A stretch of 64,000 bases of DNA from an uncultured Anaerolineales bacterium (GTDB taxonomy: Bacteria > Chloroflexota > Anaerolineae > B4-G1): assembly GCA_964575455.1 (NCBI GenBank), contig CAZNRX010000001.1, positions 112,527 to 176,526 on the forward strand, in the 5' to 3' direction. Both the position numbers and the translations under genes were made by a program. Below are positions 36,982 to 62,544 of this stretch, in pieces; the stretch's first letter is position 1; every line of letters begins with the position of its first letter. The notes under the pieces are model-generated. The model was not told the origin of the DNA, made no database searches, and was given only the letters and a program-made list of their open reading frames with translations.

Positions 36982-37075
36982 AACGGGACACGAAAGGCGC
37001 GAAGAACGACACGAAAGGCGCAAAGCACGACGCGAAGGACGCGAAGGATGAAGGGCACGAATGGGGTGCAGACCG
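36982..37075 (+). repeat. Phased CACGAA-type direct-repeat array (21-bp units 'gacacgaaaggcgcgaagaac' x2 plus degenerate copies) in the ftsQ-ftsA gap.
   Basis: Units at 36988-37008 and 37009-37029 differ by 2 nt, then 'gacgcgaaggacgcgaaggatgaagggcacgaatgg'. CGAA cores recur every 10-11 bp. Confidence 0.85.
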
Positions 37076-37116: not shown

Positions 37117-38337
37117 GTGGAACGAACGGTAGTCGGTATCGATGTCGGCTCCAGCAAAATATGCACGATGGTGGGAGAGGTCCGTGATAACGGCGACCTG
37201 CGTGTCGTCGGCGTTGGCCTGGTCACGGCGCGTGGCCTGCGCAAGGGCGTGGTGGTCAACGTGGATGAGGCCACGGAGGCACTCGCCGCCTCGGTCGCTG
37301 AGGCCGAGCGCTCCTCCGGGTACAAGCTTGAGCGGGCCTATGTGAGCGTCAGCGGCGAGCACATCTCATCGCTAAACAGCCAGGGTGTGGTCGGTGTCTC
37401 CCATCGCCGTTCAGGCATCACCATCGATGACGTGGAGAGGGCGCTGGACGCCGCTTGTGCCATCACGGTGTCGCACAACCAGGAGGTCATCCACGTGATC
37501 CCGCGTGGCTACGTGGTCGACGGGCAGGGCGGCGTGCAGGATCCCATCGGCATGCACGGCTTCCGCCTGGAGGTTGAGGCTCACCTCGTCACGGCCTCCT
37601 CCACGGCGATCCAGAATCTGTTGAAGTGCGTACGTCAGGCCGGCCTGGAGGCCGACGAGGTCGTCTCGGCGGGGATAGCCGCTGGCGACGCCGTCCTGGC
37701 GGAGACGGAGCGTGAGATGGGGGTGGTGCTAGCCGATATCGGCGCTGGTACCACCGACGTGGCTATCTTCATCGATGGCACTGTGTGGCACACGGTCACG
37801 CTGGGCATCGGTGGCGCCTACGTCACACAGGACATCGCCATCGGGCTTCGTCTGCCTCCGTCTGTCGCTGAGGAGATCAAGGTGAAGCACGGACATGCCC
37901 TTCCGACTCAGGTGGACAACGACGAGGTGTTCACCGTCTCCTCCTTCGGCGACGAGTTCAGCCAGGAGGTGCCGCGGTGGAAGCTGGCCAGCATCGTTCA
38001 GGCGCGGGCTGAGGAGATTCTCTCCATGATCAACAAGGAGATCAAGCGCTCGGGGTACGACGGCCTGCTGCCGGCCGGCGTGGTGCTCTCCGGTGGCACA
38101 GCGCAGCTCCTCGGCATGCGAACCCTGGGGCGGCAAGTGCTCGGCCTGCCTGTGCGCCTGGGCAGCCCCAGGAACCTCCATGGCCTGGTCGATGCCGTCA
38201 GCAACCCGGCGCACGCCGTGGGGGCGGGATTGTTGACCTGGGGGAGCACGGAGGAGGCCCGTCCACAGCTCAAGGTCCGGCCCGGGCCTGGCGGCGGGGC
38301 GCGCATCCTCAAATGGCTGCGGACGTTGCTTCCGTAA
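37117..38337 (+). CDS. ftsA: Cell division protein FtsA.
   Basis: 'VVGIDVGSSKI' actin-fold phosphate-1 motif and 'DIGAGTTDVAIF' phosphate-2 motif. Confidence 0.92.
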   Translation: MERTVVGIDVGSSKICTMVGEVRDNGDLRVVGVGLVTARGLRKGVVVNVDEATEALAASVAEAERSSGYKLERAYVSVSGEHISSLNSQGVVGVSHRRSGITIDDVERALDAACAITVSHNQEVIHVIPRGYVVDGQGGVQDPIGMHGFRLEVEAHLVTASSTAIQNLLKCVRQAGLEADEVVSAGIAAGDAVLAETEREMGVVLADIGAGTTDVAIFIDGTVWHTVTLGIGGAYVTQDIAIGLRLPPSVAEEIKVKHGHALPTQVDNDEVFTVSSFGDEFSQEVPRWKLASIVQARAEEILSMINKEIKRSGYDGLLPAGVVLSGGTAQLLGMRTLGRQVLGLPVRLGSPRNLHGLVDAVSNPAHAVGAGLLTWGSTEEARPQLKVRPGPGGGARILKWLRTLLP

Positions 38338-38430
38338 CGCGAAGGGCACGAAACAGAAGACGAAGAGCGTGAAATAGAGCACGAAGGGCACGAAGCACGA
38401 AACACACGAAACACTATGGGCACGAGATAG
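38338..38430 (+). repeat. Second phased CACGAA/CGAAG repeat array (ftsA-ftsZ intergenic region).
   Basis: 'cgcgaagggcacgaaacagaagacgaagagcgtgaaatagagcacgaagggcacgaagcacgaaacacacgaaacac' with cores spaced ~10 bp. Confidence 0.85.
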
Positions 38431-38508
38431 GGGAGCAAGCAGAGCAACACATCGAGCTGAAAAGGGGACAGAATGGCACTCTCGCATCACGACATTGGAG
38501 GAGGAACA

Positions 38509-39585
<1,077 letters not shown>

Positions 39586-43700: not shown

Positions 43701-44477
43701 GTGGAGGAGATGACGACGATGGCGTCGCTGCGAGAGGTTTTTACGTTTCCTTTTCGCGGTCCCGACTGGAAGCAGCCCTTCATCATCGGGTCCGTGCTAC
43801 TGATCGTGAGCTTCTTCATCCCGATCCTGCCGCTGATCTTCGTCTGCGGCTACGTGCTCGTGGTGATGCGTCAGGCCATCCGGGGGAATGAGCTCACCCT
43901 GCCGCGTTGGGACGACTGGGGCAAGCTGGCGGGGGACGGCCTGCGCGCCATGCTGGTTGGCTTCATCTACCTGCTGCCGGGGCTGTTGGTCGCGTCTGGC
44001 GGCTTTGCGCTATACCTTGCGACCACGTTTGCTATGCCCTTCGCCATCGAGGCTGGAGACGAAACCCTCTGGCCGCTCCTCTTCTTCGGCAGCTTCGCCA
44101 TTATGTTCCTCTCGATGTTTCTCGGGACCCTGCTCACGCTGTTAGGGGCGATTCCACTGCCGATAGCCACTGCGCACTTCATTGACGAGGACGACCTGTC
44201 GGCCGCTTTTCGATTCCGTCAGTGGTGGCGGCTGCTGCGCGCGAACCCGATGGGCGTCTTCATCGCCTGGGTGATGGTGGCTGGGCTGATGGCCATCGTC
44301 TATCTGGTCGTCTTGCTGGCCTACTACACACTTGTGCTGTGCTGCGCGGTCCCGTTCCTGGCGAGTCCCATCGGCTTCTACGTCCTGCTGGTGAGCGCCG
44401 CCATCTTTGGGCGCACCTATCGGGAGAGCTGGCGGATGGTGGCGGACAGCCGTGTTGCAGAGAAAAACGGGCCGTGA
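43701..44477 (+). CDS. Polytopic membrane protein (DUF4013-like), 258 aa.
   Basis: 6-7 TM helices with the conserved-looking '[10 protein letters not shown]' and '[11 protein letters not shown]' segments. GGAGGAG RBS. Immediately upstream of nrdJ. Confidence 0.55.
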
Positions 44478-44572
44478 AAGAAGCTTGCGCTTCAGCTTTC
44501 GCATCGGAACCGCGCAACTTTGGCCCGATACGTTACTTGACCCCTTCGGCCCATACCGAGATTGGAGAGAAT

Positions 44573-47023
44573 ATGACGATACAGGAAACAATGGAGATTG
44601 ACGCACCTAATCAGGAGGCATCCATTGAAGACAGGCTTTCCGAGAACGCCCTGAAGGTCTTCCAGCGCCGTTACGTGCGCAAAGGACCGGACGGACAGCC
44701 CGTGGAAACGGTAGCGGGTGTCTTTCGTCGTGTCGCCTCCCATGTCGCCGCTGCCGAGGAGGGCCTCAACGGCGACGCTCAGCGGGCGGAGAAGATCTTC
44801 TTCGACCTTATGACCCGGCTCCACTTCCTGCCCAACTCGCCGACCTTCACCGGCGCGGGCACGCCTCTCTCACAGCTGGCGGCCTGCTTCGTCCTACCTA
44901 TCTCCGACGACATGGGGCGTCGGGATGATGGCATCTTCGAGACGCTGCGGGACATGGCGCTGATTCAACAGACCGGTGGCGGTACCGGCTTCTCGTTCTC
45001 CCGTCTGCGGCCTAAGAGCGCCGTCGTTCATTCCAGCGGCGGCGAGGCCACCGGCCCAGTCGGCTTCATGCAGGTCTACGACACCGCCTCCGAGATCATC
45101 AGCCAGGGCGGAGCGCGGCGCGGCGCGAACATGGCGGTCCTCCACGTCAACCATCCCGACATCCGCGACTTCATTCACTGCAAGTCGAGTGAGTACGCCA
45201 TCACCAACTTCAACATCTCCGTCGGCATCACGGATGACTTCATGCGGGCCGTCGCCCAGGACGAGAACGTCGACCTGGTCAACCCTCAGGATGGGGAGGT
45301 ATGGGAGACCGTCGCCGCCCGGGAGCTGTTCGACGAGATGGTGAAAGCGGCCCATCGGAACGGCGAGCCAGGCTTGCTCTTCTTGGACACGGCCAATCGG
45401 GACAATCCCACGCCCCATCTGGGCGACTATGAGGCGACCAATCCGTGCGGAGAGCAGCCCTTGCTCCCCTATGAGAACTGCTGCCTGGGATCCATCAACC
45501 TGGCGCGTCACGTGAGGCCGGCCAGCAACGACGGCAGGCGCGCGGTCAGGGTGGTCGACTGGGAGAAGCTTGAGGAGACGATCCGACAGGCGGTCCGCTT
45601 CCTCGACGATGTCGTCGGCGCCAACGGATACGTGCCGGCCGTGCCCGAGCTGCGCGAGGCTGCTCGGCGCACGCGCCGCATCGGCCTGGGCATCACCGGG
45701 CTGGGCGACGTGCTCTATCAACTCCGCGTGCGCTACGGCAGCCAGGAGGCGCGAGATCTGGCCGGCCAGTTGATGGCCTTCATCCGCTACCACGCTATGC
45801 GCACCAGCGTCGACCTGGCGCGCGAGCGAGGCCCCTTCCCGGCCATCGAGGGCAGCGTCTACGATCCTGCGGACGTGCGCTGGGAGCCACCCCAGCCCGT
45901 CGAGCCCTTCGACCCGTCGAACCATTGGGGTCGGCCCTCGCTCCATTGGGACGCCCTCGTGGCCGATATCGAGCGTCACGGCATCCGGAACGCGGCCCAG
46001 ACGACCATCGCGCCGACGGGCACCCGCTCGACCATCGCCGGCATAGAGGCCTACGGCTGCGAGCCGGTCTTCGCTCTTGCCTACGTGCGTCACATGAACG
46101 ACAACGGTCAGGACGTGGAACTCGAGTACACCAGCCCTCTCTTCCTGCAGGCCCTGACGGAGGCCGGGTTGGACGAGGCGTCGCGCCAGCAGATCATCGA
46201 GCAGGTAGCGGTCTCTGGGAGCTGTCAGGACGTGGAGCAGGTTCCCGAGGCCATCCGCGAGGTCTTTGTCGTGGCCCAGGACGTTCCCGCGGAAGAGCAT
46301 GTCCGCATGCAGGCCGCGCTTCAGGCCTTCGTGGATGCCTCCATCAGCAAGACCATCAACTTCCCGGGCGACGCAGAGCCTGAGGAGGTGGCTCGCGCGT
46401 TTGAGCTGGCCTGGAAGCTGGGATGCAAGGGCCTCACTGTCTACGTGACGGGCTCGCGCGAGAAAGTGGTGCTGGAGACGAAGGAGACGAGGCAGGCCAA
46501 GCAGCGGCCCACGGCCGGCATGATGTCCACCGATGTGCGGCCGCGCCCTCACACGCTGGAGGGCAAGACCTACAGAGTGCAGACCCCCCTGGGCACAGCC
46601 TACACCACGGTCAACGTCAACGGCGACGGCGAGCCGTTCGAGGTGTTTCTCAACGTGGGCAAGGCCGGGTCGGACACAGCGGCGGTGGCGGAGGCTATCG
46701 GGCGCCTGGTCTCGTTGGTTCTGCGTTTGCCCTCACCCCTCTCGTCCAGGCGGAGGCTGAACCAGGTGGTTCGACAGCTGCGGGGCATCGGCAGTGGTCG
46801 CTCGTTGGGCTTTGGACGTGACCGGGTGCGCAGCCTCCCGGACGGCGTGGCGCAGGTGCTGGCCGAGCACCTGGGCCTTGCGGAGCCCGTGGAGGGCGCC
46901 AAGAGGAGCGAGCAGCTCCCACTCTTCCCGGAGGGCGATCTCTGTCCCGAGTGTGGTCAGGCTTCACTCGTCTTCGAGGAGGGCTGTCGCCACTGCTACA
47001 ACTGCGGCTACAGCGAATGCTAG
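44573..47023 (+). CDS. nrdJ: Adenosylcobalamin-dependent (class II) ribonucleoside-diphosphate/triphosphate reductase NrdJ.
   Basis: 816 aa with '[12 protein letters not shown]', '[11 protein letters not shown]' and '[21 protein letters not shown]' active-site regions, and a C-terminal CxxC...CxxC zinc ribbon. GGAGAGA RBS. The listed ORF starts 117 codons too early. Confidence 0.92.
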
Positions 47024-47041: not shown

Positions 47042-48058
47042 CTACACCACCTCCACGTTCAGCGCGGAGAGGACCGCGTCGATCGGGTTGAGGATCGTCG
47101 CGGCCGGTGACCCCGCGAAGAGCAGGCCCACCACGCGCTTCTCCATGTCCAGCACCGCCGATCCGGAGTCCCCACCCTCGCTCATGGGGCTGGCGATCAA
47201 CTGCCCCGTGAAGAGCGCCTTCGGGCCGTAGTAGTCGATGCGCACCGTGGCGTCGACCTGGGTGATGGTCCCCTTGGTGTAGCCCGTGGTCCGGCCTGAC
47301 TTCTGCACCTCGGTCCCCAGCGACGCTGTGCCGACGCCCACCGGCGTGCCAATGCCCAGGATCTCGTTGGTCACCTGATTCGGCGAGAGCGGTCGCGCCA
47401 GAGCGGCGTCCACTCGATTGGCCGCCTCGCTCCTCTTCACCGCCTCGAGCTCGTGGCGCGACCCCAGGGCCCCTGCGATGACGTTCATGAGCTTCGCCGT
47501 CCAGTCGGCGATGTCGCACTCGGACGGCTCCGAGTCGAAGATCAGAGGCACGTACTCCGCCAGCCTGGCGATCCGGTCCTCCGGCCCGCCACCGTCCGCG
47601 GATCCGGGCTGGAGGATCGGGTCCCAGATCTCGCACGTGTTGGTGTTGGCGAGCACATGGTTGTTGGAGAGGATGAACAGCTCTTCGTCGCGGTGTACCA
47701 GGCAGCCGAACGTGCCGGCGGTGATCAGGTAGTGTCCCACAGAGACGCCGGGTGGGATGACCGGTCGCCAGCGGTCTTGCGGCCCCAGCTCCTCCCCTCC
47801 GGAGGGGAGGGCGCGCAGCAGCCCCGTCTCGACCACATCTGTCTTGACGTTCTCCACCTTCGGGGGCACCAGATCTCGTGCCGTCAGCGCGGCGGCTGGC
47901 TCCTTGTGCGTCACCGAAACCACGACGCTCAGCTCCCCGGTGTTCTCCCCTTGGCTTACCTTGTAGCCCAGGCCAACGCCCACCACGTTGCGCTTCCCCA
48001 GTAGATCGACGGCATGCGTCTCCTTGGCGCTTTTCGCCTGAGCGAGTCCATGCACCAT
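47042..48058 (-). CDS. Chymotrypsin-fold (S1-like) serine peptidase with an N-terminal ~90-aa accessory domain.
   Basis: Candidate triad His 'GHYLITAGTFGC', Asp, and Ser 'GDSGSAVLD'. AGGAGGTGA RBS. The N-domain 'NVVGVGLGYK...ELSVVVSVTHKEP' is paralogous to the upstream small ORF. Confidence 0.7.
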   Translation of the reverse strand: MVHGLAQAKSAKETHAVDLLGKRNVVGVGLGYKVSQGENTGELSVVVSVTHKEPAAALTARDLVPPKVENVKTDVVETGLLRALPSGGEELGPQDRWRPVIPPGVSVGHYLITAGTFGCLVHRDEELFILSNNHVLANTNTCEIWDPILQPGSADGGGPEDRIARLAEYVPLIFDSEPSECDIADWTAKLMNVIAGALGSRHELEAVKRSEAANRVDAALARPLSPNQVTNEILGIGTPVGVGTASLGTEVQKSGRTTGYTKGTITQVDATVRIDYYGPKALFTGQLIASPMSEGGDSGSAVLDMEKRVVGLLFAGSPAATILNPIDAVLSALNVEVV

Positions 48059-48099
48059 CGCGTCACCTCCTAAACACGAAAACCACGAACTACGCTGCT

Positions 48100-48366
48100 C
48101 TATGTGAGTGCCCGGAACTGGCCCACAGCCTCGATGTCCACAGGCACGCCATCCAACTCATGCGGTACGATGTCCTTTGCCTTGAGCTTCGAACGGGGTA
48201 CCTTGTGCGTCACCGAGACGACGATGGCTGGTTCGTCCGTTAGCCTCCCACGCCGTCTGCGAAACCCGATGCCTACGCCAACCACGTTAGCCTTCCGCAT
48301 CAGCCTACCCTCGTGCTTCGTCTTGACGCGTCGGAGCCGCTTCATCTGTTCCTTCGATACTGGCAT
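48100..48366 (-). CDS. Stand-alone 88-aa protein homologous to the N-terminal domain of the adjacent S1-like peptidase.
   Basis: 'NVVGVGIGFRRRRGRLTDEPAIVVSVTHKVPRSKLKAKDIVPHELDGVPVDIEAVG' aligns with the protease N-domain. GGAGGAG RBS 7 nt before the ATG at 48366. The longer 317-aa listed ORF upstream of this Met is GC-rich antisense. Confidence 0.6.
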   Translation of the reverse strand: MPVSKEQMKRLRRVKTKHEGRLMRKANVVGVGIGFRRRRGRLTDEPAIVVSVTHKVPRSKLKAKDIVPHELDGVPVDIEAVGQFRALT

Positions 48367-48416
48367 GTCTCTCTCCTCCGTCCCGGTCGGTGGCCGGACC
48401 CTTCCTCCACGCTCGC

Positions 48417-49406
48417 CTACTCTGATGTGGAGATGAGGCGCATCTGCATCAACTGGGCCTGCTGCGTCGCGGCCAAGGCCTGGAGCCTCCTGTCGCCGCT
48501 CTGATCGGCTAGCTCGGCCGCTCGCTCTAGGTCGGCCAGAGCAGCGTCGTAGTCCTTCTCCGCGGCGGCCACTCCGGCTCGCATATAGTATCCCCAACCT
48601 GACGTCGGATCCAGGTCGATGGCCTTGTTGGCGTCGGCCCTCGACTTCGCCACGTCGCCCGCCTGCAGGTAGATTGGGGCCCGGTTGAGGACGAAATCGA
48701 ACCGCGTCTCGTAGAGGGGCTCGGCGGCAGCGAAGGCTTCCTCGGCCTGGGTCGATGCCCCAAGCTGGCCGTGCAGCACCCCTTTCCAGAGCCACGGTTC
48801 GGGATCGTCTGGGGTGAGCTCCGTCGCGGCGTTGAACGCCGCGAGCGCCGCTCGCAGGTCCCCCTCCGCAACCTGATATCTGCCTGCTTCCATGTGCCGT
48901 AACGCCTCGCCCACCTCCGGAGGGGGGGCGAGGAATCGCTCGTAGGCCAGCCACGCGCCCGCCAGAAGGACGATGACGGCCAGCGCGCCCGCCGCCAACC
49001 GCATTAGCCTGCGGCGCCGTTGCCTGGCGGCCGCTTCGTCCAGGTGCCACCACCAGTTGTCGGATAGGGAATCCCGACTGCTGCGCCTAGCTTCTTCGAG
49101 GGCCCAGCCTGCCTGTTTCAGGAAGCGCTCCTTGCGGTGCTGCAGCTGCCGCTGAAGGGTCTCGAACCTCGTCTGCTCGATGCGCACGTCCACGTCCTGC
49201 TGCCCGAGATCGTGCAGCTCGTGGTCGATGCGGTCCAGGAGGTGGAGCAGCTCCAGTGGATTCGACAAGGTGGATCGGTCTCCCACCTCAGACGCCCGCG
49301 AGCCGGCGTCGCTCAGGGCAGAGATCGCGCGCTCGGCCTGATCCAGCGCTTCGCGTACGCGGTCGATCGTCGTGCGGCTCTTGGATGGGACGTAGAGCTT
49401 ACCCAT
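48417..49406 (-). CDS. TPR-repeat protein with one TM helix.
   Basis: TM 'LAAGALAVIVLLAGAWLAY' followed by several TPR-like helical pairs. Start uncertain (MGKLYV at 49406 or upstream at 49538). Confidence 0.55.
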   Translation of the reverse strand: MGKLYVPSKSRTTIDRVREALDQAERAISALSDAGSRASEVGDRSTLSNPLELLHLLDRIDHELHDLGQQDVDVRIEQTRFETLQRQLQHRKERFLKQAGWALEEARRSSRDSLSDNWWWHLDEAAARQRRRRLMRLAAGALAVIVLLAGAWLAYERFLAPPPEVGEALRHMEAGRYQVAEGDLRAALAAFNAATELTPDDPEPWLWKGVLHGQLGASTQAEEAFAAAEPLYETRFDFVLNRAPIYLQAGDVAKSRADANKAIDLDPTSGWGYYMRAGVAAAEKDYDAALADLERAAELADQSGDRRLQALAATQQAQLMQMRLISTSE

Positions 49407-50256
49407 TGTCCTGATCGGGTGCAAGCTCGTCGTAGACCTGCTTGAGCCCGTTTCGCGCCCGACGCCGGAAGCGCGAGCGCTGGTCGTCGGCGAGAGGGAA
49501 GACGGAGAGCAGCTCATCCACGAAGTCGACCACGTCATCGCGTGCTTTGCCGCGCCTGTGGAGCGAGCGCACCCGCCGGCGCGCCAGACGTACGTATTCG
49601 CTCAACGGCTCCGTCGTCAAATGACCGTCTATCGGACCTCGCCCTGGCACGAACGTGACGTCGGACAGGTAAGGGCGTCGCAGCTGGCTCAGCGTGTGCA
49701 GCCAGGCTCGGGTGTCCGGGCATTCGTCCATAAACGGTGGCTTGCCTACGACCAGCGTGTCGCCCAGGAATATGACGTCTGCGTCCTTCAGCTTGACACA
49801 GCCGCTTCCCGGGGCGGCGCCATCGATCCGCTCCAGCACCACGTCTGTGCCCCCCTTGTGCAGCGTCAGCGTTTCGCTGAACAACAGGCTGGGCAGCGGG
49901 GGATCGAGGCTCTTGAGAGCCTCCTCTTGCTCTGGGTGATCGCGCTTCAGCCGCCTGATTGCGTTGCGCCAAAACCCCCGGCTGTAGTTGACCGCTTGCT
50001 CGTAAGCCCCTTCTGAGGCGACGATGGGGGCCTCCAGCAGGGATGCGCAGAGCAACCGATGGGGGTGCGCATCCGTTAGGGCCGTGTAGACGATGGGCTG
50101 CTCGGTCAGCTCTGAGATCTGCTGACGCCACCTCAAGACGTCCTCAGGCAGCGTCGGCACGTCCACAGCGACGACGCCCGTCGGTCCGAGGATGCAGCCG
50201 ACGTTGACGTAGGCATACTCGGTTGAGACGTAGACGTTGGGTGCGATCTGTTTCAT
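49399..50256 (-). CDS. MBL-fold metallo-hydrolase.
   Basis: Beta-lactamase-like fold with His/Asp-containing segments ('TDAHPHRL', 'FLGDTLV'). Confidence 0.65.
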   Translation of the reverse strand: MKQIAPNVYVSTEYAYVNVGCILGPTGVVAVDVPTLPEDVLRWRQQISELTEQPIVYTALTDAHPHRLLCASLLEAPIVASEGAYEQAVNYSRGFWRNAIRRLKRDHPEQEEALKSLDPPLPSLLFSETLTLHKGGTDVVLERIDGAAPGSGCVKLKDADVIFLGDTLVVGKPPFMDECPDTRAWLHTLSQLRRPYLSDVTFVPGRGPIDGHLTTEPLSEYVRLARRRVRSLHRRGKARDDVVDFVDELLSVFPLADDQRSRFRRRARNGLKQVYDELAPDQDNG

Positions 50257-50266
50257 GGTGTTTTCC

Positions 50267-51529
50267 TTAATCCTTTGGCTTCAATGTCTCCTCTAGATCG
50301 CGAAGGACGCTCTCGACCTGGTCCACGCTGGTGCCGGGTGCGCTCCCTTGGGCGACTTGAGGCCTCCCCCCACCCTTACCATCCAGTTGAGCGCACGCCT
50401 CCTGAAGAAGCCGGTTCACGTCCAGGTCTAGGGTCTCTGCCCGTGCGAAGCAGAAGTGAACCCGCTCATTGACGCTGAACAACAAGGCGACGACGTCGCT
50501 ATGCTCCGCCAGCTTGCGGGCCAGGGTTTGCAGCTCACCGGCGCTCCGCTGTTGCCACACCGCTCCGACGATCCGATAGGTCCCGTAAATGGCTGCTTTC
50601 TCTACTAGCTGGGCGCTCTCCATATCCAGCAGCCGCTCTCGAAGCTCCCGCTCGGCGCGTTGCAGCTGCTTGTTCTCTTCCTGTAGACGATCAACAGCTT
50701 CATCCAGCTCCTGAGTCCCGACGGTCAGCGTTTTACCCAGCGTGGCCGTCATGCTCCGCCTGGCCTCGTAGTCCCGCAGCGCGCGCTCCCCGCACAGGAA
50801 CTCGACGCGGGTCTTGTCGCCGCGATGCTCCAGCCCGACGATCTTGATCATCCCCACCTCGCCCGTGCGGGCGACGTGCGTCCCCCCACAGGGGTTGACG
50901 TCGAAGGAGGGTTCGTCTGCCTTCGAAGATTCGGGGATCTTGATCAGGCGGATGGGCCCCTCTACGTCCGGCGGCAGGTCTGCAGGTGGCAGGTCCGGCG
51001 CAGCGTTGCTGTCCACGAAGCGAACGCTGATCGGGCGATCATCCCAGACCACGTCGTTGGCCGCTACCTCGACCGGCAGGACGTCCTTCCACTGGAGATC
51101 CGCGATGCCTATGTCGATTGTGCTCGACGTCGCTCCCAGGTGGAAGCCGACTGTTGCCGCATTGGGATGACCGGCGTCCCCGAGCACGTGCTCGAAGGCC
51201 GCTGAGAGGATGTGTTGGCCCGTGTGCTGCTGCATGTGATCGAAGCGGCGCTGCCAGTCTATCTTCCCCACGACCTCATCCGTTGCGATGGCGCCCGAGA
51301 GAACGTGCACGATGGGCCTTCGACCGGAATCGTCGGCCTCACCTTCGACCACGTCCAGCACGGTCGCCCTCCCCAGCGTGCCTCGATCTGCTGGCTGTCC
51401 GCCCGACGTGGGATAGAACGCCGTGCGATCCAGGATCACCGCGGGATGATCCTGCCAGGTCAGCTCCTCGACCATGCGAGCGGTGAAACGCGTCTGATAG
51501 GGTTCGGTGTAGTAGAGCCGTTCTGTCAT
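50267..51529 (-). CDS. Alanyl-tRNA editing protein AlaX-L (AlaRS editing-domain homologue).
   Basis: 'HTGQHILSAA' and 'CGGTHV' zinc-binding editing motifs plus an AlaRS-like C-terminal domain. Confidence 0.85.
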   Translation of the reverse strand: MTERLYYTEPYQTRFTARMVEELTWQDHPAVILDRTAFYPTSGGQPADRGTLGRATVLDVVEGEADDSGRRPIVHVLSGAIATDEVVGKIDWQRRFDHMQQHTGQHILSAAFEHVLGDAGHPNAATVGFHLGATSSTIDIGIADLQWKDVLPVEVAANDVVWDDRPISVRFVDSNAAPDLPPADLPPDVEGPIRLIKIPESSKADEPSFDVNPCGGTHVARTGEVGMIKIVGLEHRGDKTRVEFLCGERALRDYEARRSMTATLGKTLTVGTQELDEAVDRLQEENKQLQRAERELRERLLDMESAQLVEKAAIYGTYRIVGAVWQQRSAGELQTLARKLAEHSDVVALLFSVNERVHFCFARAETLDLDVNRLLQEACAQLDGKGGGRPQVAQGSAPGTSVDQVESVLRDLEETLKPKD

Positions 51530-61164: not shown

Positions 61165-61380
61165 CTCTGCCCCCTTTTCGTGCCCGTCATTTCGTGGGTG
61201 GTCCCCCTCTTGCATGTTGTTGGCTCATTTTCGCTCATGAGGGATCGTGGGTCGACGCAGTCACCCGAGATCCCGTCCAGAGCGCCGGATAGCCATATCC
61301 GGCGCGAGCAGAGTGGCAAATGTGGCGCGCTGCAACCCAGCAACACGCTACAGGGGGACCACCATTTCGTGAGCTTCGTC

Positions 61381-62544
61381 TCAATTCGTATCCTTCGTGT
61401 TGAGAATCTGACGATACACAGCCACGGTCCTGGCCGCTACGCTTTCCTGCGTGAACTGGCGCAGCACTCTCTCTCGTCCCCGTCTCGCCAGGCGGCGTGC
61501 GATCTCGGGTTCGTGCATCAACCGGACCAGATGGGCCTTGAGCGCTGCGACGTCGCCCTCCGGGAACACCAGACCGGCATCCCCGATGACGTGGGGAATC
61601 TCTCCGCAGTCGGAGCCGATGACCGGAACGCCACACGCCATCGCCTCGATCAGCACCCGCCCGAACTGCTCCACCCAGTTCGGTTGGGAGCGCGAGGGCA
61701 AGACGAGCGCGTCCAACTGCCGGTAGAACGCCGGCATGCGCAGCGACGGCAGCCACCCCTCGAATGTGACGTTGCCGGTCAACCCCAGGTGACGGGTCTG
61801 GGCCTCCAGTGCCTCCCTTTCGCTGCCGTCACCCAGGATGCGCAGGCGCCACGGCCCGGCTTCGAGCGCTGGGCCCTTCAAGTCCCCCACCGCTTCCAGC
61901 AGCAGATCGACACCCTTCTCCGGCACCAGACGGCCCACGTACCCGATGGCAAAGGGCGATCCCGGCGTGGCGCCTCGCACCGGAGACTCCTCTGAAGGCG
62001 ATGAGTTGGAGGGCGTGAAGATGGTGGGATCGACCCCAAACTGGGGGATGATGGCCATCGGCCCTTCGTAGCCCTTGTCCCGCCAAACCTCCGCTGCCCC
62101 CTCGCTGCCCACGATGGCGTAGTTGGTGTTCTGGAGGTTGTAGGACTCGATCAGTCGGAAGGGCAGTGGATACCGTCGGTTGAGGTTCTGCCAGGAGAAC
62201 CAGAGAGCTCGGGCGCTAGCTCGCTTGGCCATCCAGAGGGCGTGGGCCGTGCCGAGGTTGTAGGGTTCCTCATCAATGTGTACCACGTCGGGGGCGAACG
62301 ACCGCAAGCGTCGCCCCAGCCGGGGGTAGATGTGGAGGTGGAAGCTGCCGCTGAACGTGATGGGCTCCACCACCAACTCGTACCCGTCTGTGTGTGCGCG
62401 TTCCAGGTGGAGCACCCGGCTGGCCTCGCGCCAGGAGGGGGGGACGGCGACCATCAGGTCGACGTCGGGAAAGCGAGCGATCTCCTCAAGCTTCCGCTGG
62501 TAGGCGCCCACCAGACAGGCCTTGGAGACCATCAGAACGCGCAT
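61381..62544 (-). CDS. GT4-family glycosyltransferase (GT-B fold).
   Basis: 'EQFGRVLIEAMACGVPVIGSDCGEIPHVIGD' EX7E-type GT4 motif. The last codons (ILNTKDTN*) are encoded by CACGAA-repeat DNA. Confidence 0.85.
   Translation of the reverse strand: MRVLMVSKACLVGAYQRKLEEIARFPDVDLMVAVPPSWREASRVLHLERAHTDGYELVVEPITFSGSFHLHIYPRLGRRLRSFAPDVVHIDEEPYNLGTAHALWMAKRASARALWFSWQNLNRRYPLPFRLIESYNLQNTNYAIVGSEGAAEVWRDKGYEGPMAIIPQFGVDPTIFTPSNSSPSEESPVRGATPGSPFAIGYVGRLVPEKGVDLLLEAVGDLKGPALEAGPWRLRILGDGSEREALEAQTRHLGLTGNVTFEGWLPSLRMPAFYRQLDALVLPSRSQPNWVEQFGRVLIEAMACGVPVIGSDCGEIPHVIGDAGLVFPEGDVAALKAHLVRLMHEPEIARRLARRGRERVLRQFTQESVAARTVAVYRQILNTKDTN

Follow-up and report, generated by a model that had tools for sequence, protein, structure and literature searches.

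A free-standing NAL1_N domain protein as a candidate accessory subunit of a bacterial NAL1-like serine protease

A small gene directly ahead of a serine protease gene

The window analysed here is a stretch of 64,000 nucleotides (nt) from the genome of an uncultured Anaerolineales bacterium (contig CAZNRX010000001.1, positions 112,527 to 176,526 of the forward strand), and the subject of this study is a pair of genes on its minus strand (Table 1): a small gene encoding a protein of 88 amino acids (aa), here called S, and, after a spacer of 41 nt, a gene encoding a serine protease. An earlier reading made from the letters alone (the sequence-only reading) had described S as a free-standing copy of the N-terminal domain (N-domain) of this protease, and both open reading frames (ORFs), together with the strong ribosome-binding site of S, were found where it had placed them. 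The two genes are the last of a run of five minus-strand genes with short gaps (AlaX-like, MBL-fold, TPR, S and protease), which is convergent with a plus-strand ribonucleotide reductase (RNR) gene. From the comparisons reported below, we propose that S serves the adjacent protease as a dedicated accessory or regulatory subunit, held to it non-covalently, and we give this reading a probability of about one half.

S and the N-domain of the protease share a NAL1_N module

A BLASTP alignment matched residues 8-87 of S to residues 5-84 of the protease without a gap (33/80 identical, 41%; E 7e-19). A profile-profile search of the shared domain, which had been suggested as a check, was also run: hhalign aligned a profile of 33 free-standing homologues of S with a profile of the N-domains of 24 proteases over 82 columns with a probability of 99.9% and an E-value of 9.9e-35. 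These two values indicate that the similarity is real and far beyond chance, so that the resemblance between the small ORF and the N-terminus of the protease, first picked out from the letters alone, is significant in a formal alignment.

S scores above the curated cut-off of the Pfam family NAL1_N (43.8 bits vs 27) and is a member of that family, and the N-domain of the protease itself stays under the cut-off with 12.7 bits. Searched against the PDB, the S profile of 33 homologues matched chains of rice NARROW LEAF 1 (NAL1) only (E ~8e-8, full-length residues 96-167). The shared module is no recognisable S1 pro-peptide; it is the Pfam NAL1_N domain, the counterpart of the stretch of rice NAL1 (aa 89-172) called its 'ATP-binding domain' (ABD).

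The protease resembles rice NAL1 over both domains

In domain order, fold and catalytic triad, the protease is a bacterial NAL1-like serine protease, predicted to be cytoplasmic. Its Pfam matches are weak (Trypsin_2, Trypsin, Nal1_C and NAL1_N), and its AlphaFold2 model, with a predicted local distance difference test score (pLDDT) of 81 and a predicted template-modelling score of 0.82, consists of the N-domain (helix 2-20; strands 25-35, 38-49 and 71-77) followed by a chymotrypsin fold. When this model was compared with the PDB using Foldseek, the best 34 matches were rice NAL1 chains, with E ~2e-13 over 380-400 columns and both domains aligned; S1E proteases (streptogrisin B, alpha-lytic protease) ranked directly after them. 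Streptogrisins and alpha-lytic protease were also the best PDB sequence matches of the protease domain (E 5e-5 to 1e-2). The triad motifs NNH134VLA, VD217AA and GDS298GS do not vary among 49 close and 24 distant homologues. No signal peptide was seen in S or in the protease, whose N-termini (MPVSKEQMKRLRRVKTKHEG and MVHGLAQAKSAKETHAVDLLGK) are charged and contain no hydrophobic segment, and both proteins are predicted to be cytoplasmic for that reason.

The segment that links the N-domain to the protease domain (aa 87-117, window 47708-47800) has a pLDDT <50 in the monomer model and contains the invariant residues W97, P99, P102, P103, G104, V105 and H109. It may become structured only within an oligomer or through contact with a partner; an invariant segment modelled with such low confidence is compatible with an interface and proves nothing.

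S forms an ancient clade under purifying selection

A search of 5.8 billion proteins returned 185 homologues of S, with typical lengths of ~85-100 aa. Among the 120 listed, nearly all are free-standing proteins of 80-120 aa; the few with a source name come from metagenome-assembled genomes (MAGs) of Anaerolineae or Anaerolineales, and the nearest relatives are MAGs of uncultured Anaerolineales. Nineteen positions are invariant in 33 diverse members. Nucleotide differences between S and three orthologues fall mostly at third codon positions (15/6/30 in L006, 14/11/37 in L007 and 21/15/47 in L008 at codon positions 1/2/3), indicating that the reading frame is under purifying selection.

We then built a neighbour-joining tree from 82 free-standing S copies and 70 protease N-domains taken from related loci, and the two sets separated perfectly. 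S copies share a mean identity of 54% among themselves and N-domains one of 48%, against 41% between S and N-domain (43% for pairs from the same locus). The duplication is therefore older than the divergence of the sampled Chloroflexota, and the S copies form an ancient orthologous clade; S is neither a recent copy nor a remnant. Polarising the duplication with NAL1 turned out to be uninformative, as its ABD scores 38.1 bits with the S profile and 36.5 bits with the N-domain profile.

In the window, S carries an extremely basic charge (net +12, pI 11.4), whereas its neighbouring protease is acidic (net -12, pI 5.1). Charge complementarity of the pair was considered and dropped because it is not general: the net charge of S across the family is 0.2 +/- 3.3.

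S and the protease stay together through changes of gene order

Linkage was assessed in 80 species-representative genome loci recovered with the S profile, plus one metagenome locus (L001); two of the loci end at a contig edge. S adjoins an N-domain-bearing protease in 68 of the ~79 informative loci, so that the pair recurs in other genomes, as the sequence-only reading had proposed to verify. S precedes the protease in ~46 of the paired loci and follows it in ~21, and the two genes are convergent in one. Their spacers range from overlapping stop and start codons up to ~200 nt and often measure a few nt. The AlaX, MBL, TPR and RNR flanks are common to close relatives only; the pair itself persists through full turnover of its neighbours and through inversion of the gene order.

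A second sample consisted of 80 metagenomic loci around a distant family member, with proteases 36-49% identical to that member. Fifty-one of the 68 informative protease loci in it have an adjacent free-standing S relative: S lies upstream in 23, a strong S match lies downstream in 5, and a divergent short form lies directly downstream in 23. By inspection, these downstream partners are separate ORFs in a frame different from that of the protease. Pfam does not detect the divergent short form, but hhalign shows it to be homologous to S (probability 98.7%, E 1.6e-16); it does not have the two long basic loops of S, and examples are found in L098 (~1220-1502), L099, L108, L114, L136, L152, L109, L112 and L091.

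S and the protease are naturally fused in both orders

Fusions were counted only among proteins whose full sequences were read. Four of them (P0152, P0166, P0179 and P0242) are S-N-protease fusions of 416 aa with a tight junction, and P0170 and P0208, known by length only, are of identical length. Two more S-N-protease fusions (P0128 and P0129) measure 437 aa and have a linker, ...AGRLGEERGAM..., that looks like an intergenic spacer which has come to be translated, the former start Met being its last residue. The reverse arrangement, N-protease-S, was found in one cluster (P0243, 432 aa), in which the C-terminal S-type domain carries the S-specific GVPVDVQ motif. Pfam detects two NAL1_N stretches in each of the fusions scanned (P0152, P0128 and P0243). 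As fusions are rare among the 1,254 family representatives (E<=1e-30) and as their proteases are 66-75% identical to the unfused protease of the window, they look derived, through at least three independent events. Such fusions are 'Rosetta-stone' evidence that the two products act together physically. The suggestion that S is functionally linked to the protease is thus borne out by its conservation, by adjacency in both gene orders and by these natural fusions.

A proposed role for S and its relation to rice NAL1

Several structures of the rice NAL1 serine protease are available (PDB 7Y77, 8PME, 8PMM, 8PN2 and 8HAS; PMC12012508). Its ABD is built from four strands and a curved helix, with two loops that bind ATP-Mg through R120, R122, K123, K139 and D166; in the NAL1 trimer, the ABD docks on the protease domain of the neighbouring subunit; activity requires a hexamer, which needs an extra N-terminal strand, and the oligomeric state sets the loop of the catalytic His (PMC12012508). 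NAL1 carries just one ABD, in cis, and is not known to have a free-standing partner, whereas the bacterial system has a separate S. Its extra N-terminal region (aa 1-88), of which beta-strand 1 drives trimers into the hexamer, has no equivalent in the bacterial protease or in S, both of which begin at the ABD helix, and the bacterial protease is only ~18-19% identical to NAL1 overall.

The ATP-Mg ligands of NAL1 are partly retained, and unequally so in the two copies. The equivalent of R120 is R36 in S (R in 66/82 copies) and K in the N-domain, and that of K139 is K55, invariant in S (82/82), with an invariant K in the N-domain too. R122 corresponds to R38 in 49/82 S copies and to Ser in 43/70 N-domains, and D166 corresponds to Q or E in 78/82 S copies and to Val in 51/70 N-domains, so that the protease's own N-domain has lost the equivalents of R122 and D166. 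If either copy binds a nucleotide, S would, on weak grounds, be the likelier one. After the last strand, S reads G-V-P-V-D-V-Q and the N-domain G-V-[RK]-T-D-V-V; since S and N-domain differ at these conserved positions, they may use different contact surfaces, which suggests that simple mimicry of the N-domain by S is disfavoured.

In our model, the S and protease genes would be co-transcribed and their products expressed together. S would bind the protease, which we infer from its ABD homology, its antiquity, the selection on it, the co-location of the two genes in both orders and the fusions, and it would give each protease chain a second ABD-type module, in trans in the window and in cis in the natural fusions. 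By analogy with NAL1, S would then most likely control the assembly, the activation state or the substrate access of an oligomeric protease, possibly in response to a phosphate- or nucleotide-type ligand on its basic loops (R36, R38 and K55). The fusions and the antiquity of S point to a constitutive subunit rather than to a titrating inhibitor.

Several observations weigh against this model. Ten loci contain S and no protease within ~6 kb, so that adjacency is not obligatory, and no protease remnant was detected within ~6 kb of these solo S genes even at E<=10. Conversely, 17 of the 68 informative distant protease loci have no partner nearby. Many of the divergent short partners have an N-terminus that resembles a signal peptide or a lipobox (MRLTAAILLMALATAAC, for example), and the proteases adjoining them have no signal peptide; in that subclade, such N-termini fit poorly with a cytoplasmic complex. 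The equivalent of NAL1 K123 is not conserved, as it varies in S and in the N-domain alike. The NAL1 ABD, finally, resembles the two profiles equally well, so that S is not specifically 'the' ABD.

A narrower version of the accessory-subunit model is that S is a switch subunit sensing ATP or another nucleotide, whose docking in trans gates the assembly of an inactive NAL1-type protease into an active cage. We regard this version as distinctly unlikely. If true, the pair would amount to a self-compartmentalising serine protease under regulation, able to sense ATP without hydrolysing it, and it would represent the ancestral two-part state that was the source of single-chain plant NAL1; interest in the system would rise if S is such a ligand-dependent assembly switch.

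Alternative explanations for S

The sequence-only reading had likened the shared module to the pro-domains of S1 peptidases and had suggested, among other options, that S could be a trans-acting foldase or inhibitor. In such a role, S would bind the protease domain transiently and catalyse its folding or hold it inactive, its C-terminal ...R-A-L/F tail perhaps occupying the active site, before its release or degradation. There is a precedent for a separately supplied domain acting on a protease in this manner, as the pro region of alpha-lytic protease is active in trans in vitro. The protease domain is nearest to MEROPS S1E in sequence, its nearest solved sequence relatives (streptogrisins and alpha-lytic protease) are pro-region-dependent S1E enzymes, S1E enzymes come directly after NAL1 by fold, and S1E pro regions, too, include an alpha/beta module of ~80 residues encoded N-terminal to the protease. 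The alpha-lytic pro region was reportedly described by Sauter et al. in 1998 as two tandem alpha/beta domains, an organisation that the order of the S-N-protease fusions would match. Both S and the N-domain also end in a conserved G-x-[LIF]-[RK]-A-[LFQ], where about half of the S proteins stop, and such ...R-A-[LF] ends are only a hint of pro-region removal or inhibition. We nevertheless consider this mechanism unlikely, because neither S nor the protease matches Pfam Pro_Al_protease at E<=1 and because the S profile matches no pro-region chain of the PDB at E<=10. Unlike S1E enzymes, the bacterial pair shows no signal peptide, hence no secretion-coupled folding problem, and no evidence of cleavage. 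The equivalent domain of NAL1 stays attached and is structural (PMC12012508), S1E pro regions are naturally fused and removed and are not conserved as separate genes in either order, and the C-terminal position of S in P0243 would be an odd place for a pro-peptide. Of what had been proposed, the functional link of S with the protease is supported, and the foldase or inhibitor mechanism is the less supported part.

S might otherwise act as a competitive microProtein that mimics the N-domain, takes its docking surface, blocks homo-oligomerisation and keeps the protease inactive. MicroProteins, a concept from plants and animals, are small single-domain paralogues that regulate multi-domain relatives through heteromers, and S is like them in consisting of an interaction domain alone, in having a domain of a larger enzyme as its paralogue and in being genetically linked to that enzyme. 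S and the N-domain indeed have the same fold and are 41-43% identical, and the NAL1 trimer is formed by contacts between ABD and protease domain, with a higher oligomer needed for activity (PMC12012508). We find this improbable all the same: S and the N-domain differ systematically at conserved surface positions (the GVPVDVQ face; at the R122 equivalent, R in S and Ser in the N-domain), the proteins fused covalently 1:1 in several lineages would each be a permanently self-inhibited enzyme, and the tight or overlapping gene spacing suggests stoichiometric co-production. MicroProteins are, moreover, usually recent and dominant-negative, whereas S is old, displays a conserved surface of its own and, in some lineages, forms a single chain with its target.

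Another possibility is that S works independently of the protease, for instance as a small nucleotide- or nucleic-acid-binding protein, and that adjacency merely reflects shared ancestry and inherited synteny. The 10 loci that keep S without an adjacent protease speak for it, three of which retain AlaX-MBL-TPR upstream (L001, L039 and L040) and three of which have an alpha/beta hydrolase instead, as does the strong basic charge of the window S. That charge is not a family trait, though, adjacency outlasts both gene-order inversion and complete flank turnover, and S and the protease were fused independently, which makes this explanation quite improbable.

The idea that S is untranslated, or a functionless leftover of a duplication or fission, has nothing in its favour except the small size of S and is close to negligible, being excluded in the form first suggested (a duplication remnant) by a monophyletic S clade as old as the sampled Chloroflexota lineages and under purifying selection, by the 185 homologues, the 19 invariant positions and third-position-biased substitutions and by the strong ribosome-binding site. 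A toxin-immunity or defence pair was also considered and rejected, contrary to the immunity pair first imagined: PADLOC matched neither S nor the protease, nor the TPR and MBL proteins, and the closest relatives keep a vertically conserved housekeeping neighbourhood, AlaX-MBL-(TPR)-S-protease/RNR.

Novelty and significance

NAL1 is a major yield gene of rice, and the structure of this cage-forming, ATP-binding protease was solved only recently. A literature search found no paper on bacterial NAL1-like proteases or on stand-alone NAL1_N proteins, and a conserved, separately encoded second ABD-type protein is not described in any paper found; homologues of S and of the protease are unnamed or called 'hypothetical protein' in their source annotations. 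The bacterial NAL1 branch is large (>1,200 clusters at 50% identity, E<=1e-30) and usually comes with a second ABD-type copy, so that the two-gene Chloroflexota system offers a testable handle on what ABD-type domains do, be it assembly, gating or ligand sensing. It also illustrates cleanly how an ancient paralogue of a domain can be retained as a partner encoded in trans, and the fusions argue that the two associate physically. We see it as a comparative-genomics result of moderate interest with a clear experimental path.

Genomic surroundings of the pair

Table 1. Features of the S-protease locus in the window. Positions are those of the 64,000-nt window.
Feature	Position	Strand	Remarks
Gene S	48100..48366	-	88-aa free-standing NAL1_N (ABD-like) domain protein; ATG 48366, stop TAG 48102-48100
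Shine-Dalgarno-like GGAGGAG for S	48373..48379	-	6 nt ahead of start codon; read from sequence
Shine-Dalgarno-like AGGAGGTGA for protease	48063..48071	-	ahead of protease start codon; read from sequence
NAL1-like serine protease gene	47042..48058	-	338 aa; ATG 48058, stop 47044-47042 included; N-domain and chymotrypsin-fold domain
Protease N-domain	47804..48058	-	aa 1-85; paralogue of S; helix / beta-hairpin / strand topology as in S
Serine protease domain	47045..47773	-	aa 96-338
Catalytic triad codons	H134 47659-47657, D217 47410-47408, S298 47167-47165	-	
Tandem CACGAA-N3-CACGAA	48075..48089	+	TTCGTG in gene sense; in S-protease spacer
TPR protein gene	48417..49398	-	one hydrophobic segment; start uncertain; Pfam TPR matches
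MBL-fold protein gene	50256..49399	-	
AlaX-like tRNA-editing protein gene	51529..50267	-	
RNR gene	44222..47023	+	uninterrupted

The gene upstream of S encodes TPR repeats (Pfam TPR_8 1e-11, TPR_2 6e-11) and a single hydrophobic segment, LMRLAAGALAVIVLLAGAWLAY, in agreement with the TPR membrane protein predicted there by the sequence-only reading. Its longest ORF (start 49538) runs ~140 nt into the 3' end of the MBL-fold gene (49399-49538), and the true start probably lies downstream of 49538. A TPR gene stands upstream of S in many Anaerolineales loci, in a synteny that is limited to close relatives: it is not upstream of S in L008, L010, L026, L027, L042 or L044, nor in any distant locus. 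Between positions 46800 and 51800, a scan for sigma-70 promoters gave zero promoter-like sites, and a scan for terminators gave a single terminator-like site, which is inside the AlaX gene; shuffled sequences give more.

CACGAA motifs had been noted ahead of both genes. Two copies (48075-48080 and 48084-48089) do precede the protease, both between the stop codon of S and the start codon of the protease; none was found upstream of S, and the motif is not conserved in the spacers of orthologous loci. It is enriched across the window (51 copies vs 26.9 +/- 5.2 expected). A shared regulatory signal of the two genes was rejected on these grounds, and the tandem is a genome-wide repeat motif rather than a conserved part of the module. 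CACGAA may be a genome-specific regulator-binding or repeat element. Tandem clusters, frequently with 9 nt spacing, occur at 38347-38410, 31612/31621, 34856/34877, 36989-37061 and 61177-61399 (minus strand), and five copies fall into the gap that separates the ORFs 37117..38337 and 38473..39585.

Other observations at related loci

The solo S genes are those of L001, L039, L040, L048, L050, L056, L059, L064, L066 and L068. In three of these 10 loci, an alpha/beta-hydrolase gene (Abhydrolase_1 / S33-like, 291-300 aa) precedes S on its strand, immediately in L064 (121-996) and L068 (4976-5878) and at a distance of one ORF in L048 (2954-3829). At L056, a DUF1028-TPR protein is encoded upstream of S.

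Some members of the protease family carry additional regions. P0347 (486 aa) combines TIR_2 (E 8e-25), NAL1_N and the protease, which hints that some family members work in signalling or defence contexts; P0339 (604 aa) has an N-terminal region of ~260 aa whose nature is unknown, and P0328 (420 aa) has a hydrophobic, membrane-like N-terminal region. Two homologues contain intein-like insertions, after the NNHVLA His motif in P0247 (684 aa), where Pfam LAGLIDADG_3 matches, and in P0388 (717 aa), where the insertion appears to split the Ser motif between GDS and GS. The RNR orthologue that lies downstream of the protease is interrupted by ~1.1 kb in three related genomes (L009 2660-6142, L017 7510-10986 and L038 2210-5710, minus strand), at the position of residue 288 of the window RNR, and this interruption is probably an intein.

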